From Poseidonia sp. (GTDB lineage Archaea; Thermoplasmatota; Poseidoniia; Poseidoniales; Poseidoniaceae), in assembly GCA_965661285.1 (NCBI GenBank), contig CBFIDD010000004.1, positions 32,001 to 96,000 on the forward strand: a stretch of 64,000 bases of DNA, read 5' to 3'. Both the position numbers and the translations under genes were made by a program. Positions 55,329 to 63,343 of this stretch are shown piece after piece (the first letter of the stretch is position 1; each line of letters starts with the position of its first letter). Under the pieces are notes generated by a model. That model had not been told where the DNA came from and did not search any database. It worked only from the letters and a program-made list of their open reading frames with translations.

Positions 55329-55384
55329 GTCATCCCCACGTGTTCGGTGTGTGCACCCAATTATGGCTCTTGTCCAAAAAAAAG

Positions 55385-55458
55385 CGGGCGTGGCAGGATT
55401 CGAACCCGCGATCTTCGGCTTAGGAGGCCGATGCATTATCCAGCTGTGCTACACGCCC
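55385..55458 (-). tRNA. tRNA-Arg (anticodon CCT)
   Basis: Minus strand GGGCGTG...CACGCCC acceptor stem, anticodon arm TCGGC-CTCCTAA-GCCGA, T-loop GGTTCGAATCC, followed by a T-run. Confidence 0.95.
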
Positions 55459-56639: not shown

Positions 56640-56687
56640 GAACCCAAAGACAGGTCCATGGTCTTTGAACTCTGCGAGCGATTTGGC

Positions 56688-56837
56688 TCACTCTGCGCTA
56701 AGGCGCTTGGTACCGTGTCGGCGGAGTTTCATGAAAATGCGGGAACCGCACGCCTTGCAGCTGATTCCGTTTCGCTCTCGGTGGAACGATTCGAGGTTTC
56801 CGCAGTTGGCGCACTTGTAGTCAACGAGTTCAACCAT
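56688..56837 (-). CDS. rpoP: DNA-directed RNA polymerase subunit P (Rpo12)
   Basis: YKCANCG...ISCKACGSRIFMKLR; 49 aa. Confidence 0.9.
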   Translation of the reverse strand: MVELVDYKCANCGNLESFHRERNGISCKACGSRIFMKLRRHGTKRLSAE

Positions 56838-56883
56838 AGTTCTCTCTCCAAGGCTGGCGACTTCGCATCCTGTTTTCAACCTT

Positions 56884-57087
56884 TCATTCAACCAATCGTT
56901 CGACAAATGCATCAAAGGTGGGGCCTGCCATGACGACGAAGGCCCCTTGATGGTAGAGTTGAACCATTTTGAAAACAACATCGGACGGGGTTCGGCCAAG
57001 CACATCGGAAACGACCACAAGGTCATGTCCGAGTTCAAGATTCTCAACGAGGAGCGATTCCTCGATCGATGACCAACGCCCCATCAT
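56884..57087 (-). CDS. Small Myb/SANT-like helix-turn-helix protein
   Basis: RWSSIEESLL...G...SDVLGRTPSDV matches the W-(S/T)-x-x-E-x-x-x-L...LGRT pattern. It starts 5 nt after the stop of the poly-Ubl gene. Confidence 0.6.
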   Translation of the reverse strand: MMGRWSSIEESLLVENLELGHDLVVVSDVLGRTPSDVVFKMVQLYHQGAFVVMAGPTFDAFVERLVE

Positions 57088-57092
57088 GGGAT

Positions 57093-57737
57093 TCAACAAG
57101 CACGTCCACCGACGAGGCCGGGCATCAAGCGAATGCGGCAGCCTGCTTCCAAGTTCATGTTGGCAATTTCAGCGGTGCTGACGAGTTGGTTGTTCACAAA
57201 CACCCAGGAGCCTTGGGTTTGGCTGGCCTTTTCGACGAGCTCGTCTTGTGTCATTTGCACGGTGGTGTGGCCGGTTGCGTCGGCGATTTCCACCTCAAAG
57301 GCGGGGGCGTCCTGGCCGCCGATGAGACCGGGGGCCAACCGAACAGTGCTGCCCTCGCTCAGGTTCATGTCGGCGATGTCGGCGGCGCTGACGAGTTGGT
57401 TGTTCACAAACACCCACAACTCGCTGTTTTGCTCGGCAGTGTCTGCGATTTCTGCCTGCGTCATCACGGCTTCAGAGTGACCGCTCTTGTCGGTGATTTG
57501 AACGACGAAGGTCGGGACGTCTTGGCCACCGACGAGTCCGGGCATCAAGCGGATGCGGCTGCCGGCTTCCAAGTTCATGTCTGCGATGTCAGCGGCGCTG
57601 ACGAGCTGGTTGTTCACAAACACCCAGGAGCCCTGGGTTTGGGTGGCCTTGTCGGCGATTTCGTTCTGTGTCATCTGGACAACGGAGTGCCCAGATGCGT
57701 CTGCAATTTCAACGTCAAATTTCGTATTGTTTTCCAT
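57093..57737 (-). CDS. Tandem triple ubiquitin-like (beta-grasp) protein; polyubiquitin-like precursor
   Basis: Three 70-71 aa units, each with WVFVNNQLVS and ending RL-x-PGL(V/I)GG. The final GG is followed by RAC-stop. RBS AGGTGA precedes ATG 57737. Confidence 0.85.
   Translation of the reverse strand: MENNTKFDVEIADASGHSVVQMTQNEIADKATQTQGSWVFVNNQLVSAADIADMNLEAGSRIRLMPGLVGGQDVPTFVVQITDKSGHSEAVMTQAEIADTAEQNSELWVFVNNQLVSAADIADMNLSEGSTVRLAPGLIGGQDAPAFEVEIADATGHTTVQMTQDELVEKASQTQGSWVFVNNQLVSTAEIANMNLEAGCRIRLMPGLVGGRAC
57105..57737 (-). repeat. Three ~210-bp imperfect tandem repeats (57737-57525, 57524-57315, 57314-57105)
   Basis: The plus-strand block gctgacgag(t/c)tggttgttcacaaacaccca recurs every 210 bp. 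Confidence 0.95.
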
Positions 57738-57743
57738 GGTATT

Positions 57744-57781
57744 CACCTGTTTGAAAGACTGAACAATTTACCCCATATAAA
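57744..57781 (-). promoter_or_regulatory. TATA box and RBS of the poly-Ubl gene
   Basis: Minus strand TTTATAT (57781-57775), then AGGTGA (57749-57744) 6 nt before the ATG. Confidence 0.6.
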
Positions 57782-57887
57782 GAAACGAAAAACGAGGAGA
57801 AAGGTGTCTCGCTCGAAGTGTTCGCTCTGTTTGAGGGCACATTCGTACACGTCCACCGAACGTATCGGTCAAGTGTATATGAAGGAC

Positions 57888-59198
57888 TCAAGTTTTCAAG
57901 TTCGCTTGACGGGCAAGGAGGTGAATTTGCATGCTGTGTTCAACCATCGCTGCGTTGGCCCAAGCCTGGTCAAAGTCCGCACCAACGGCATAGGCGCCGT
58001 TACCGCGAATCACGACGCAGCGCATACCGCCCTGATTGAGGGCTTCTGCCACCTGCCGAAGATGGTCTTCGGGGTGTTCGGGGTCCGGGTCGACGATGAT
58101 GATCTTGCCGATGTGGTGCTTGCCGATTTCATCGATGGGGGTCAGCAGAACGAGGTCTTTCTCACAGCTGGCGGCGGTGGTGTGGGGTCCATGCATGTGA
58201 ATCACCGCAGCAGGTCCTCCGGTGACCATGGCCACCGAAGCGAGCACGACTTCGAGAACATGCCAGTCGGTGGGCGCTCCGCGCGGCGAGGTTGACCCGA
58301 GTGGGGCCGCACACAGGCTGCGTTCGTTCATGCGTGGAAGCGTGACCATGTGACGAGTGGAGATCATCACGCCTGGCTGCTCGGGATGAATCATCGCAAG
58401 CGAGCCCATGGTGGCTCTCACCAAATGTTCCCGGTCGAGTTGACGACCAAGCCGGACGAAATCGGACACAACATAGGGCGGGATGACGATGTTGTCTTCC
58501 ACCAAGGGAGGCATTGGAGGCTCTTCCAATTCCTGGATAACTTCGGTCGCGCCGACGACAGATTGGCGCAGTCGGGCGTTCTCCATGTGAAGGCGTTCAA
58601 GTTCAGCCTCTCTTTGAGCAAGAAGGTCTGCCGTGGCTTGGTCCGCGTCAATGACCGGGGCGGGGCGTTCGTCCTGAACTTCCGGTTGCGCTTGCTCGAC
58701 ATGCGTTTCTGCTTCCCCAACAGGCGCACGAGAGGCTTCTTCCGGTGCTGGCTCAGGATCGGAGGCTTCGGTGACGTCGGGTTCTGCGGTCGGTTCGGGG
58801 GTTGGCTCTGGTTGAGCAGGGGGTTCTTCCGTTGATTCGGGTGCTGAGACGAGGGGGTCGTCCGATGGGGTTTCTGGAGCTTCTTCTGCCGGCGGAGTCG
58901 AGGAGGGGCCGCTTGGTGGGCCCGAAGGAGGACCTGATGGGGGGCCACTTGGAGGGCCCGAAGGTGGACCCGAGGGTGGACCCGAGGGTGGGCCCGAGGG
59001 TGGGCCGGTCGGTGGGCCTGATGGGGGTCCGCTCGGACCGGTGGGGGCGGGCGGCGTCGGCTCTTCGGCCGGTGTTGTTTCCTCTTGCGGCTTCTCAAGG
59101 GATTCGATGTCCCCAAAGGCCCCGCCGAGCATGTTGTCGAGTTGGGACTGTTCTTCCTCATCCCGTGCTTTCTCTGCTGAAGTTTTTCCCTTTGCCAT
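57888..59198 (-). CDS. Class II aldolase/adducin-like domain with long Pro/Glu-rich N-terminus and short coiled coil
   Basis: The C-terminal ~190 aa follow the FucA pattern (GRQL...LV...G, AVIHMHGPHTTA, IRGNG, GADFDQA). The N-terminus has (PPSG)n. Confidence 0.8.
   Translation of the reverse strand: MAKGKTSAEKARDEEEQSQLDNMLGGAFGDIESLEKPQEETTPAEEPTPPAPTGPSGPPSGPPTGPPSGPPSGPPSGPPSGPPSGPPSGPPSGPPSGPSSTPPAEEAPETPSDDPLVSAPESTEEPPAQPEPTPEPTAEPDVTEASDPEPAPEEASRAPVGEAETHVEQAQPEVQDERPAPVIDADQATADLLAQREAELERLHMENARLRQSVVGATEVIQELEEPPMPPLVEDNIVIPPYVVSDFVRLGRQLDREHLVRATMGSLAMIHPEQPGVMISTRHMVTLPRMNERSLCAAPLGSTSPRGAPTDWHVLEVVLASVAMVTGGPAAVIHMHGPHTTAASCEKDLVLLTPIDEIGKHHIGKIIIVDPDPEHPEDHLRQVAEALNQGGMRCVVIRGNGAYAVGADFDQAWANAAMVEHSMQIHLLARQANLKT
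58905..59045 (-). repeat. 12-bp coding tandem repeat encoding (PPSG/PPTG) about 10 times
   Basis: Plus-strand ggcccgagggtg / gacccgagggtg units with synonymous variation, in frame within the CDS. Confidence 0.85.
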
Positions 59199-59264
59199 GG
59201 TGGCACCCATTTCACCCACATGGCGCGGCTTAAATAGCGGTTGCGTCCCCGAGGGAGTGCAACT

Positions 59265-59339
59265 GCCCGCTTGGTGTAGAGGTTATCATGCAGGATTGTC
59301 ATTCCTGCGACCCGGGTTCAATTCCCGGAGTGGGCGCCA
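59265..59339 (+). tRNA. tRNA-Asp (anticodon GTC), CCA encoded
   Basis: GCCCGCT/AGTGGGC acceptor stem, CAGGA-TTGTCAT-TCCTG anticodon arm, GGTTCAATTCC T arm. TTAAATA lies about 30 nt upstream. Confidence 0.95.
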
Positions 59340-60289: not shown

Positions 60290-63200
60290 TCACTCGTTCT
60301 CGCTGCCACGGCGGTTGCCGGCAAGTGCAGCAAGACCGATCATCGCCATCACGGTGAGTGGCGAAACAAAGGGCAGGAGGCCTGCATCTTCAGCGATGTC
60401 TTCGGCCGTTTGTTCGCCGTCGTCGGTGGTTTCGCCACTGTTGTCGGTGGCGTCGCCGAGGCCGAGGTCAGAGGTGTCGGCACCTGCTTCCTCGAGGTCG
60501 GCCGCCAATTCGGACAGATCGTGGTTCTCAACGTCCACGATGTCTTCGAGGTCGTCAAATTCAGCCATCTGTTCCTGAGCCTCTTGGGCGGGAACGCCGG
60601 TAATGTAGCGGATGCTGGCGAAGATCATGGGCAAGTCTTGGCTGTAGCCGGCCGTTTCTGGTCCAGCGATGACGTAGCCATTCCCGTCCTCGTCCCAAGC
60701 ATAGACGCCAACACCAACGATGGTGGCGTGTTCGTTGCTCCAAAGCGGCGCCCACATACCGTCGGTGTAGGGGAAGACAGGGACTTCGTAATCCTCGTCG
60801 AGGTCTTGGAAGGTCATCTCGAGGTTGTTGCCGAAGTTCTCCAGCACGTTACTGAGGCCGGAATCGGCCAAAGCGCCGGCGATTTTCTCCATGCGCTCAC
60901 TGACTTCTGGACCGTCTTCAACGGTCATGCAATCTTCGTAGGTATCGAAGGGTTCGGTTTCACCGTTCTCCACCAACTCCACGGAGAGGCAGTATTCGCC
61001 CTCTCCAGCAATGTCGACGAAGTTTTCGGTGGACACCTCGGACTGGTCGTTAAACGCAACGCTGCCCTGGTCGATGACCGTGTTGTCGGCATCAGAAACA
61101 GCCCAATGCATCGTGATATCGTCGAAAGAATCGCTCCAGGTGCCTGCTCCCGCTGTGACACGGAGGGTGTTGTCGCCCTCGTTGTTCATGTTGCTCTCCC
61201 AGTCTCGGATTTCAGGTCCATTCCAGGTAGAATCGCAGGTTTCATCGGCGGAGACCAAGGTGGTGCCATCCGGAGCAGAGATGCTTGCCCCGACGCACAT
61301 TGTGTTTTCACCGTATCCCATGTCGGCTGGAACGGTGGTTTCGACCGAGATGTAGCCGGAGTCGATGCTGATCGAAACATCGCAGGACCAGTCCGCACAT
61401 GCCATCACATCATCCATTGAGGCAAGCACGGTGCCTTGACCGTCGTCCATGTAAGCGTCCATCATGAAGAAGGTGGCTTCCCCTTCGTCTTTGCCGTCTG
61501 CGCAGTCGACGGTACCGTCGTTCACGAGGGTAAAGTCCAGGTTCGTGTTGTAGTCGTCGCAGTAGAAATTTCCTGACTGGCGAGTGTCGTGTTCATCATC
61601 GCCATCCTCGCAATGCTGCGTGCCGTCATTGACATACTGGAACGGAATGCGGTCGTAGTTTTCACAAAGGAACCAATCGCCGAGGTTGTCGGCTGGTTCA
61701 TCCGAAGCATCAGCGCAGTCCACCGTGCCGTCGTTCACGAGTTCGAAGGAAATCTCAGAGCCGTCGAGGCAGACATAGGTGCTGGTGAGGCCGTTTTCGT
61801 ATTCATCCGAACCATCGTCGCAGTCATCCCAATAATCGTTCACATCGTCAATGGCCAGTTCTTGGTATTCACCGTCATAGTTGCACATGATGGTGGCCGA
61901 TTCCTCAAATCCAAGGGCGGTAGCGTCAACACGTCCGTTGAAGCTGTAGTATTCTTCACCGGTGTTCCAGTCCTGGGAAGTCCCACCGCTGAGGTAGAAA
62001 TCGTCCTCATCTGAACCGTCCATGCAGTCTTCGTTGCCGTTGTTCACATACCAGGATTCGATCATCTCACCACTGTCGCACATGAACCAGTTTTCACTGT
62101 CGTCGTAGTCCATGTCGCCCTCTTCGTTGCTGCCAAACCAATCTTCGATGAGTTCTCCCACGGAGTCTTCAAGTTCGGCCTCGAAGTCTTCAGCCACAGC
62201 CTCGCCAAAGGATTCACTGGCGTGAACCAAAACGTTGCCCATCATGATGAACATGACCGGGTTACCGGGCGGGCAGGTGTCGCAAGCCGTTACATCGAGC
62301 GTGTTTCCGTCTCCCAGGCTGACCTCGAGTGGTTCGTCGGTGCGCATGCTGAACGAGACATCATCCATGTCGGCTTCGCCTTCGTAGTCGCCTTCGCTGG
62401 TGAGTTCGTCGCTGATGCTGATGTCAAACTGACCCGCATCAAAGCCAAACTCTTCCATGGGCAGACCGGTCAAATAGACGTTGTAGTCGGCCGAGCCAAT
62501 GTACGAGCCGTCGACCATGCCGCACATGTCGTAGACCTCGGCTTCGTCCGAGCCACCGACGCCATCGGTGTTGTCGCCAACGTCGTCGCTTTCCTCAACG
62601 CAATACCAATCGGTCCGGTCGTTGGCAGCAGCGGTGACGTAGATGGGGCTTGGGTTGCCAAGGCGCCATTCGGCCTGAGAAGCGATGGAGTAGCTGAAAT
62701 CCATGCCGGTGTCGAAGTCAACGTTGAGTTCCTCGCCGTCGCCCTTGAGGGCAATATCAATGCCGAGGTTCATGTCGTTGCCGACGGTCATGTCAATGTC
62801 CATATCGGCGCCGACAAGTTGGTACTGGTCGTTGAGGTACTCGGTGTAGAGCATGTCCACGGTCAGCACGTTTTCGGCTTCCGCAAGGACGTCGATGTCA
62901 AACCCGGTGGGCTCGCTGCCAAAGGTGGTCTCCGACCAGTCGGTCATGATGACGGCGTTGGAAAGCAGGCCGTGGCGGAGGACGACATCGCTGGTACGGC
63001 TCCACACTTGGACATCGTTGCCTTCCAAGTCCTGAATGGTTTGAGGCGTGATGTCCTCGGTTTGGTGAATGTAGACATTGGAGGCGCCGGTGGTCAACTG
63101 ACCGATATCAAGATTGAAACCGGCTTCATCGGCGTCGGCCATGATTTCGGTGAACAATTCTTGGATGTCCAAGCCTGTCACGTTTTGGAGGTCGCTGTCA

Positions 63201-63343
63201 AGGCTTGACCAATCGTATTCCACGCCATAGTAGTACTCTGATGGTTCGTCAGGGACGGCTTGGACCAGAGCAATGGGGGAAAGGGCGGTCAGCAACAACA
63301 GGGTTGCGAGCAGGCGGGCTGGGGTTCGTCGCGAGGTGGACAT
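60290..63343 (-). CDS. Secreted acidic surface protein with five LDL-receptor class A-like repeats and a PGF-CTERM-like C-terminal anchor
   Basis: Signal peptide; five units C...VN(D/N)xxx(D/H)CxD(G/A)xDE; C-terminal LLPFVSP-TM-RR. Confidence 0.82.
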   Translation of the reverse strand: MSTSRRTPARLLATLLLLTALSPIALVQAVPDEPSEYYYGVEYDWSSLDSDLQNVTGLDIQELFTEIMADADEAGFNLDIGQLTTGASNVYIHQTEDITPQTIQDLEGNDVQVWSRTSDVVLRHGLLSNAVIMTDWSETTFGSEPTGFDIDVLAEAENVLTVDMLYTEYLNDQYQLVGADMDIDMTVGNDMNLGIDIALKGDGEELNVDFDTGMDFSYSIASQAEWRLGNPSPIYVTAAANDRTDWYCVEESDDVGDNTDGVGGSDEAEVYDMCGMVDGSYIGSADYNVYLTGLPMEEFGFDAGQFDISISDELTSEGDYEGEADMDDVSFSMRTDEPLEVSLGDGNTLDVTACDTCPPGNPVMFIMMGNVLVHASESFGEAVAEDFEAELEDSVGELIEDWFGSNEEGDMDYDDSENWFMCDSGEMIESWYVNNGNEDCMDGSDEDDFYLSGGTSQDWNTGEEYYSFNGRVDATALGFEESATIMCNYDGEYQELAIDDVNDYWDDCDDGSDEYENGLTSTYVCLDGSEISFELVNDGTVDCADASDEPADNLGDWFLCENYDRIPFQYVNDGTQHCEDGDDEHDTRQSGNFYCDDYNTNLDFTLVNDGTVDCADGKDEGEATFFMMDAYMDDGQGTVLASMDDVMACADWSCDVSISIDSGYISVETTVPADMGYGENTMCVGASISAPDGTTLVSADETCDSTWNGPEIRDWESNMNNEGDNTLRVTAGAGTWSDSFDDITMHWAVSDADNTVIDQGSVAFNDQSEVSTENFVDIAGEGEYCLSVELVENGETEPFDTYEDCMTVEDGPEVSERMEKIAGALADSGLSNVLENFGNNLEMTFQDLDEDYEVPVFPYTDGMWAPLWSNEHATIVGVGVYAWDEDGNGYVIAGPETAGYSQDLPMIFASIRYITGVPAQEAQEQMAEFDDLEDIVDVENHDLSELAADLEEAGADTSDLGLGDATDNSGETTDDGEQTAEDIAEDAGLLPFVSPLTVMAMIGLAALAGNRRGSENE

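Follow-up and report, generated by a model that had tools for sequence, protein, structure and literature searches.

Can an archaeon outside the Asgard group encode ubiquitin-like (Ubl) modifiers as a head-to-tail precursor, in the manner of eukaryotic polyubiquitin? The question is raised by a gene of Poseidonia sp. (order Poseidoniales), located in a stretch of 64,000 nucleotides of contig CBFIDD010000004.1 (hereafter the window). A preliminary description, made from the letters alone, had taken this gene for a precursor of three Ubl units, each ending in Gly-Gly (GG), with a blocked C-terminus. The Ubl gene is best read as one part of an accessory module of Poseidoniales; the remaining parts are on a different contig and include a minimal E1 of the ThiF type (E1b) and a candidate JAMM metalloprotease (JAMMb). 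We lean towards a precursor of three different ThiS-like Ubls, cut after each GG by JAMMb and then activated by E1b. In this light the gene resembles the polyubiquitin genes of eukaryotes, of which it would be a prokaryotic counterpart.

According to the open reading frame (ORF) listing and its translation, the gene is read in one frame from an ATG at 57737 to a stop at 57093-57095; a GTG 9 bases upstream of the ATG is a possible alternative start that would add three amino acids. The layout given in the preliminary description is confirmed: 71 + 70 + 70 + 3 residues, WVFVNNQLV in all three units, GG at every unit end, GG|QD at both internal junctions and a final R-A-C. None of the GG motifs is exposed in the primary product, and freeing them would take proteolysis. 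By Tandem Repeats Finder, the repeat has a period of 210 nucleotides, with 2.6 copies and 71% matches. The gene and its parts are as follows.

57093..57737, minus strand: poly-Ubl gene, 214 codons plus stop; Pfam ThiS, 30.1 bits; 194 homologues at E ≤ 1e-3 in a word-indexed protein search.
57525..57737, minus strand: Ubl unit 1 (residues 1-71), ending RLMPGLVGG; modelled by AlphaFold2 (AF2) as strand-strand-helix-strand-strand-short helix-strand, residues 6-65.
57315..57524, minus strand: Ubl unit 2 (residues 72-141), starting QDVPT and ending RLAPGLIGG; AF2 beta-grasp, residues 76-136.
57105..57314, minus strand: Ubl unit 3 (residues 142-211), starting QDAPA and ending RLMPGLVGG; AF2 beta-grasp, residues 147-205.
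57096..57104, minus strand: C-terminal cap R-A-C after the last GG, from the translation; the cap varies among relatives.

Pairs of units within the gene are 66-80% identical in DNA (20-34% of bases differ), with synonymous divergence (dS) of 0.72-1.03, and their proteins are 55-80% identical over the C-terminal 64 residues. Unit 2 is the most divergent (56% identical to unit 3) and is recognisable as a type of its own across orthologues. In comparison with three orthologous three-unit genes, the ratio of nonsynonymous to synonymous divergence (dN/dS) is 0.11-0.19 for the whole gene and 0.07-0.21, 0.09-0.34 and 0.07-0.17 for units 1, 2 and 3, respectively. Judged by these ratios, each unit is under purifying selection.

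The beta-grasp fold that had been expected was predicted for all three units. The AF2 model, built with 22 three-unit homologues as input, has a mean predicted local distance difference test score (pLDDT) of 73.8 and a predicted template modelling score (pTM) of 0.38, and consists of three separate beta-grasp domains. Only residues 69-72, 138-142 and 209-214, which coincide with the GG sites, have a pLDDT under 50; given the pTM, no fixed packing between the domains is predicted. Foldseek agrees with the fold: its top matches are ISG15 (the best, 7rbs_B, 3e-5), linear di-ubiquitin and the tandem Ubl of OASL, followed lower down by ThiS (1zud_2, 1f0z) and Mth1743.

At the sequence level the family is a clade of its own, as judged from profile comparisons. 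The ThiS/MoaD/SAMP signature seen in the preliminary description is borne out in part: the whole protein matches Pfam ThiS (PF02597; 30.1 bits summed over 3 stretches, cut-off 22.5) as the only family above cut-off, and of 36 single units none matched it at E ≤ 0.01. The PF02597 scan of the own genome listed two other places, the window gene not being among them, and a match at C4:164149 was rejected as the S4 domain of a pseudouridine synthase-like ORF. Among NCBIfam equivalogs, the protein stays below the cut-offs of ThiS (TIGR01683, 29.7 versus 37.45 bits) and SAMP1 (NF041918, 18 versus 60). The unit profile found only ubiquitin in PDB, where the single copy was not significant (E 0.35), and reached polyubiquitin in a library of 1.84 billion proteins (P0262, 3.6e-8; P0267, 1.3e-7) via 8 and 7 summed repeats, respectively.

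The preliminary description had looked to relatives for copy number, GG retention and the tail; among Poseidoniales the unit number runs from one to four, the terminal Gly is retained and the tail differs in length and sequence among orthologues. From 120 listed homologues among the 194, 98 proteins were parsed as clean and full-length, 22 being left out as fragments, N-terminally extended or apparently frameshifted. These 98 are close kin whose counts are not independent: two units are present in 62, three in 33 and four in 3; a unit pair at least 95% alike occurs in only 3; the tail is RAC in 66, SVC in 11, LAC in 4 and another in 17, with Cys last in 88. The Ubl protein query matched 110 of 201 Poseidoniales genomes and 41 of the 61 high-quality ones. 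In 50 loci we counted 51 Ubl ORFs (14 single, 24 double, 12 triple and 1 quadruple), and all 101 readable unit ends finish in Gly, 92 as GG and 9 as AG. Gly ends are kept in genus g4, where the aligned units of locus L032 are 37-39% identical to unit 3 of the window, and also in proteins whose units are 28-55% alike. Because Gly is kept between units that have diverged so strongly, homogenisation between repeats cannot explain its retention. Tail length after the last GG ranges from none (L047) to six residues in the 50 loci and is eight in L098; the tails include RAC, SVC, LAC, MC, IY, LSA, GLHF, F, Q, I, E, none, ASAKAY, MASEVC and others. The sister family has mostly single units of ~70 amino acids, ending PGLVGG plus 0-2 residues, and L043 has two adjacent single-unit genes with separate stops. 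A profile search of 1.84 billion representatives returned 270 members at E ≤ 1e-3, mostly single units. A single-protein query of viral contigs, a method sensitive to close relatives only, gave 21 pattern matches and no relative.

Two further groups of relatives were observed. One is a subgroup of the AG type (L036, L040, L041, L042, L051), with QAG, LAG or AAG in place of GG at internal as well as terminal unit ends. In the other, a Ubl unit is joined via its GG to unlabelled domains of 130-300 amino acids, in two recurrent types (P0127, P0167, P0131; P0189, P0196, L097:1459-2559) and a third set ending ...AC or ...KC (P0158, P0161, P0218, P0160, P0148, P0166); none of those tested matched Pfam. 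By analogy with ubiquitin-ribosomal protein fusions, these may be further Ubl-capped pre-proteins.

According to the preliminary description, no partner genes were visible in the window and they would act in trans. Genome-wide family scans bear this out: two ThiF-type E1 genes and both JAMM-motif genes were found, on contig C3 and not on the window's contig. The search for partners that it had proposed succeeded for E1 and JAMM but produced no E2. The genes concerned are listed here with their positions in the window's genome (G000).

G000:C3:307231-307866: E1b, minimal ThiF-type E1 of 211 amino acids; PF00899, 68 bits versus a cut-off of 28.1.
G000:C3:307863-308411: JAMMb, divergent JAMM/MPN+ metalloprotease candidate of 182 amino acids, by motif; its ATG overlaps the E1b stop (ATGA).
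Within G000:C3:307231-308620 (L002:1477-2890): acidic, Cys-free protein of 78 amino acids directly downstream of JAMMb; conserved.
G000:C3:258835-259581: JAMMa, 248 amino acids, with two insertions of low model confidence; Prok-JAB, 22.2 bits versus a cut-off of 25.

Which E1 serves this Ubl family can be told from natural evidence, since Ubl-Ubl-E1 fusions exist. Ubl-GG-Ubl-GG-E1b is encoded as one ORF in P0128, P0275-P0279 and loci L094-L096, and P0159 is a Ubl-E1b fusion; the Ubl-Ubl-E1b arrangement accounts for 6 of the 11 longer E1b homologues. The E1b of the window's genome is 52% identical to the E1 part of P0128 over 205 amino acids (E 3e-62), and the MoeB/UbaA-like E1 of the same genome is 30% identical to it over 123. 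On this sequence comparison, E1b is the orthologue of the P0128-type ThiF domain. The MoeB/UbaA-like E1 with its rhodanese domain and JAMMa had been considered as the cognate enzymes and were dropped once the Ubl-E1 fusions pointed to E1b. E1b has no rhodanese domain, and 37 sequences share its GxGGIG motif, the ATP-site Asp and Arg, and Cys156; its scores lie below the equivalog cut-offs of PRTRC_ThiF (57.8 versus 144.75) and UbaA (38.6 versus 450). Variants of E1b were also seen (P0270-P0274), three with a different N-terminal domain of ~165 amino acids replacing the Ubl units and two with a Lys/Ser-rich insertion of ~190 amino acids inside the E1 domain.

Gene order extends the link to JAMMb. 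Ubl, E1b and JAMMb are contiguous, in this order, in seven sister-family loci (L043-46, 48, 50, 51) and in L098; the order recurs in L097, there with a Ubl-domain fusion, and in L050 E1b and JAMMb are fused into a protein of 411 amino acids. E1b adjoins JAMMb in 12 of 12 loci of the window's genus, and the stops and starts of the E1b, JAMMb and 78-amino-acid genes overlap or abut. Among 200 genomes (G000 excluded), 105 carry both Ubl and E1b, 82 neither, 4 Ubl only and 9 E1b only, counts that come from related, non-independent genomes and from scoring E1b as present at a best E ≤ 1e-25, a threshold set after the gap between 6.6e-31 and 1.2e-17 had been seen; the weaker matches are probably the other E1. 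In six patchy genera (g14, g16, g17, g19, g20, g23) the same genomes carry both genes, and such repeated agreement within genera is otherwise hard to explain. The Ubl family is linked to E1b and JAMMb as a cognate pair by fusion, by operon adjacency in relatives and by co-occurrence.

JAMMb carries the motif sequence ...LWVHTHPRFASYWSITD, in which E60, H98, H100, S108 and D111 are invariant in 15 sequences and spell E ... HxH ... S-x-x-D; the window's genus has a motif spacer of 7 residues, the sister family one of 6. Its profile matches AMSH-type JAMM deubiquitinases (AMSH-LP) across the motif with E 0.0026. A model of JAMMb with one Ubl unit scored 0.88, versus 0.36 for the best of 3 controls, a mark that 58 of 80 solved complexes attained, as did 2 of 110 mismatched pairs. 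Agreement of the contacts from run to run is 100%, the partner has a pLDDT of at least 85, and residues 64-70 of unit 3 touch E60, H98, H100, S108, T110 and D111 in the model. This pass may reflect likeness to solved JAMM-ubiquitin complexes.

Each of 12 loci of the window's genus, and also L094-L096 (E ~1e-15), encodes the 78-amino-acid acidic protein, which might act as an adaptor, be a target or take the place of an E2. The conserved module genes gave no match to a known family, and no E2-like or DUF6527-like gene was recognised among them, DUF6527 not having been searched as a family. In the sister family, ORFs resembling the 78-amino-acid protein with weak scores occupy the same position. 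A conserved gene of 168-195 amino acids stands head to head with the Ubl-E1b-JAMMb operon of that family, beside a B12-binding mutase-like gene (L044:823-1386, L045:832-1338, L048:695-1282 and L050:582-1169, minus strand); it had no tblastn match in the window's genome.

The genome also has a canonical set: a MoeB/MoeZ/UbaA-like E1 with a rhodanese domain, a MoaD/SAMP1-like protein with a free SGG end, MoaE, NcsA-like ATP_bind_3 genes and JAMMa. Of 201 Poseidoniales genomes, 185 were seen to carry JAMMa. A fold search with its model returned BRCC36, Rpn11, CSN5 and the Caldiarchaeum Rpn11 homologue (6fnn_B, 2.8e-4); phmmer against PDB gave chance matches only for JAMMa, and a scan of the genome with PF01398 (JAB) found none.

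We regard the gene and its fold, the Gly kept at unit ends, the varying caps, the changing copy number and the tie of the Ubl family to E1b and JAMMb as settled by computation; from these associations we infer internal cleavage, activation by E1b, conjugation and a biological role. JAMMb would cut the peptide bond after each GG, twice at GG|QD and once at GG|RAC, and the near-universal JAMMa may contribute to the cutting. Three Ubl monomers with free Gly-Gly ends would be released, each of which E1b would adenylate, probably forming a thioester on its invariant Cys156. The Ubl would then be passed to protein targets or to sulfur.

Several points weigh against this precursor reading. In the window's genome the Ubl gene is not adjacent to E1b-JAMMb, and the co-occurrence is subject to the late threshold and the relatedness of genomes noted above. 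JAMMb had no Pfam match at E ≤ 0.1 and none in NCBIfam or PADLOC, and aligns with the other JAMM profile over the motif only, with an hhalign probability of 27%. A UQ_con scan of the genomes for an E2 was empty, but its control matched in no genome, so that absence is not shown; no E3 was found either. Nine unit ends are AG and not GG. The three units also differ from one another and are to some degree tied to their position, a pattern that a multidomain protein would show. Bacterial Bub Ubls with three beta-grasp domains are handled as whole proteins, and a tri-Ubl therefore need not be a precursor. The one RNA run with a bearing on the locus (X20, 4% of words) covers rpoP at 56677-56888 and not the Ubl gene, and speaks neither for nor against expression.

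The main alternative, which we consider unlikely though it deserves a full hearing, keeps the protein whole: RAC alone would be trimmed and the entire tri-Ubl attached through its last GG, like ISG15, FAT10 or the Ubl2 and Ubl3 of Bub/Bil systems. ISG15 and FAT10 likewise have several Ubl domains per chain, and the C-terminal extension of ISG15 is removed. To our knowledge, neither has an internal GG; the first domain lacks a GG, and no cut is made between domains. That ISG15 is the best Foldseek match, that units are 55-80% identical and that unit 2 is of its own type in orthologues speak for this alternative, as do the bacterial Bub Ubls, 53% of which have three domains and form dimers and filaments as whole proteins in the available text of one study (PMC11601603). 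It is harder to reconcile with internal unit ends that keep Gly, mostly GG, even between units 28-55% alike, and with unit numbers that shift between close relatives, some with single-unit genes. The linkers of the model are of low confidence and the domains are not packed. In the Ubl-Ubl-E1b fusions, moreover, the E1 blocks even the last GG, so a free GG can arise there only by a cut.

A sulfur carrier, improbable in our judgement, would make a different use of the units: cleaved or not, they would be adenylated and thiocarboxylated like ThiS/MoaD, for cofactor synthesis or tRNA thiolation. ThiS is the sole Pfam family above cut-off, some sources name the relatives ThiS, the genome has MoaE and NcsA-like ATP_bind_3 genes, and the Cys-ended cap recalls sulfur-carrier precursors such as QbsE. 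The genome, however, already has the MoaD/SAMP1-like protein with its free SGG end and the MoeB/MoeZ-type E1 with rhodanese, a domain that E1b lacks. The module genes match no sulfur or cofactor enzymes (ThiG was not searched for), and of 200 genomes from the order, 82 gave no sign of the module. Gene context lends no support to a pure sulfur-carrier role.

Very little probability attaches to a repeat protein that is never conjugated, such as a scaffold or adaptor in which the GG ends are relics of an ancestor. That tandem Ubls need no GG chemistry is indicated by bacterial 6e polyUbl domains, which seem to lack a conserved C-terminal Gly, as far as the accessible text of PMC1779556 goes. Against this stand the dN/dS of 0.07-0.34 per unit, the Gly at every readable end, and the tight link to E1 and JAMM by fusion, operon and co-occurrence.

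That the triplication is an assembly artefact of a shorter gene has a negligible chance, as the preliminary description had supposed: although de Bruijn contigs of runs X5 and X6 break within the repeat, the artefact is rejected because contigs from other studies cross both junctions. Logan contigs from the runs of three other studies tile the gene and bridge both junctions; one contig crosses the two (X10 record 7, 857 nucleotides, 57130-57986), and overlapping pieces of X5 and X6 cross each with 0-2 differences. The divergence between units and their dN/dS values agree with this. At least 60% of the words of the Ubl stretch occur in each of 19 runs, 18 of them from ~11 studies other than that of the possible source. 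Near-identical proteins (P0006-P0008, 98% identity) lie on independent contigs, and three-unit orthologues are present in many independent assemblies. Two joints, 56849>57085 and 56850>57526 (X6, X10), were not used, being single contigs with a shorter side of 30-36 nucleotides and 90% likeness; they probably stem from relatives or the repeat.

The precursor reading invites comparison with eukaryotic polyubiquitin (UBB, UBC and yeast UBI4). Shared features are the head-to-tail Ubl units without spacers, each ending in GG, the short non-conserved cap (a single Cys in human UBB), the copy number that differs between relatives and the need for a protease to obtain free modifiers. Unlike those of polyubiquitin, the window units are not identical and would give three different modifiers, and they are ThiS-like in sequence, with single ubiquitin reached at E 0.35 only. 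The candidate protease is a JAMM, the E1 is a minimal ThiF of 211 amino acids, and E2 and E3 were not found. The polyubiquitin-like processing and conjugation system inferred in the preliminary description is supported in part, by the layout and by the candidate E1 and JAMM. It is a tentative step further, and one we would put a little short of probable, to see here a non-Asgard polyubiquitin-style pathway with several GG-ended modifiers, release by a JAMM, an E1 with a Cys and attachment to proteins without an E2.

Prokaryotic precedents for tandem Ubl proteins exist: bacterial polyUbl and Bub proteins have 1-3 beta-grasp domains in the texts available to us (PMC1779556, PMC11601603). In the accessible account of Iyer, Burroughs and Aravind (PMC1779556), 1-3 Ubl repeats are described together with JAB-E1 fusions and E2-like proteins, and the likeness to polyubiquitin is remarked upon. 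The available text of PMC11601596 provides a direct precedent for the cleavage step proposed here: a JAB-E1 fusion from Type I Bub operons cleaves a Ubl-E2 pre-protein immediately behind a conserved Gly. The three-domain Bub Ubls dimerise and assemble into Ca2+-dependent filaments (PMC11601603, available text). What the Bub and 6E systems share with ours is a Ubl of 1-3 domains encoded with an E1-like enzyme and a JAB/JAMM peptidase, fused or adjacent, as in the Poseidoniales relatives, and a patchy, accessory distribution. They differ in being bacterial, at least as described in these texts (PMC1779556, PMC11601596, PMC11601603). From the same partial accounts, Bub has an E2 (BubB), a DUF6527 protease, Tyr/Ser oxyesters and an E1 without the crossover-loop Cys, whereas E1b has the invariant Cys156; no conserved Gly seems to be present in the internal domains of bacterial polyUbl (PMC1779556). 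The domain order in the bacterial fusions is JAB then E1, and here it is E1 then JAMM. PADLOC and NCBIfam models of Bub/6E-type systems gave no match above cut-off, and PADLOC gave none for the window Ubl protein.

SAMPs are single domains with a free GG end. The SAMP1-3/UbaA/HvJAMM1 system of Haloferax resembles the proposed module in that it is archaeal, conjugates Ubls with a ThiF-type E1 and no E2, and has a JAMM isopeptidase (PMC4443979). It differs in that the Ubl module is a second set, separate from the genome's canonical SAMP1/UbaA-like/JAMMa set. The system of Caldiarchaeum subterraneum comprises true ubiquitin in a single unit, an E2 and a RING E3, none of which were found in the window's genome. 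Its ubiquitin operon (PMC5654768) is likewise an archaeal Ubl system with an Rpn11-like JAMM, and that Rpn11 homologue is matched by the JAMMa model. The archaeal Ubl survey of Makarova and Koonin describes Ubl-E1 and Jab-E1 fusions and, in the text accessible, mentions no tandem Ubl (PMC2948915). In the literature consulted we found no report of an archaeal tandem GG-ended Ubl; supplementary tables (PMC2948915 and Table S1 of the Bub preprints) may list some.

GG-ended head-to-tail Ubl repeats with a blocking cap, regarded as a eukaryotic hallmark, thus occur in abundant marine planktonic archaea. If the polyubiquitin-style pathway is true, the polyprotein route to Ubl modifiers arose outside eukaryotes, and the locus bears on whether that strategy evolved repeatedly and on the accessory role of Ubls in uncultured ocean archaea. 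Given its patchy, accessory distribution, the module could have an antiviral or stress function comparable to that of bacterial Bil and Bub. The compact set of E1b, JAMMb and the small acidic protein suits direct expression and testing, and offers a simple system for how precursor processing, E1 activation and E2-independent transfer fit together.

The remaining features around the Ubl gene are the following.

57775..57781, minus strand: TATA-like TTTATAT, 38-44 nucleotides upstream of the ATG; motif match alone.
57743..57747, minus strand: Shine-Dalgarno-like GGTGA, 5 nucleotides upstream of the ATG; motif match alone.
57888..59219, minus strand: upstream neighbour of 443 amino acids with a class II aldolase/adducin domain; Pfam PF00596, 53.7 bits; context only.
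56688..56837, minus strand: downstream neighbour, RNA polymerase subunit P (rpoP), a zinc ribbon of 49 amino acids; Pfam PF03604, 29.3 bits; context only.

The gene had been credited with its own TATA box and ribosome-binding site; TTTATAT and GGTGA are indeed present, but as motif matches only, and they fit a candidate archaeal TATA box and Shine-Dalgarno site. An aldolase/adducin-domain gene also lies upstream of the Ubl gene in L032, and rpoP lies downstream of it in L033 and L035. The aldolase/adducin-domain protein of the window has a Pro/Ser-rich N-terminal region of ~250 residues with ~10 PPSG/PSGP repeats and an acidic Pro-rich stretch. An ORF of 71 amino acids without a Pfam match (56884-57099, minus strand) lies in the interval from the Ubl gene to rpoP and shares a few bases with the Ubl stop. 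Contigs of two runs connect 56849 to 57085, omitting the 235 bases in between, and in the loci of genus g2 the Ubl gene is followed by rpoP without this segment, which may be an insertion absent from relatives. Further upstream, 60290-63343 (minus strand) encodes a very acidic, probably secreted protein of 1017 amino acids with a C-terminal hydrophobic anchor and Cys/Asp-rich repeats (VNDGTxDCxDGSDE). The gene cluster is flanked by tRNA-Arg (CCT) at 55384-55458 (minus strand) and tRNA-Asp (GTC) at 59265-59339 (plus strand).

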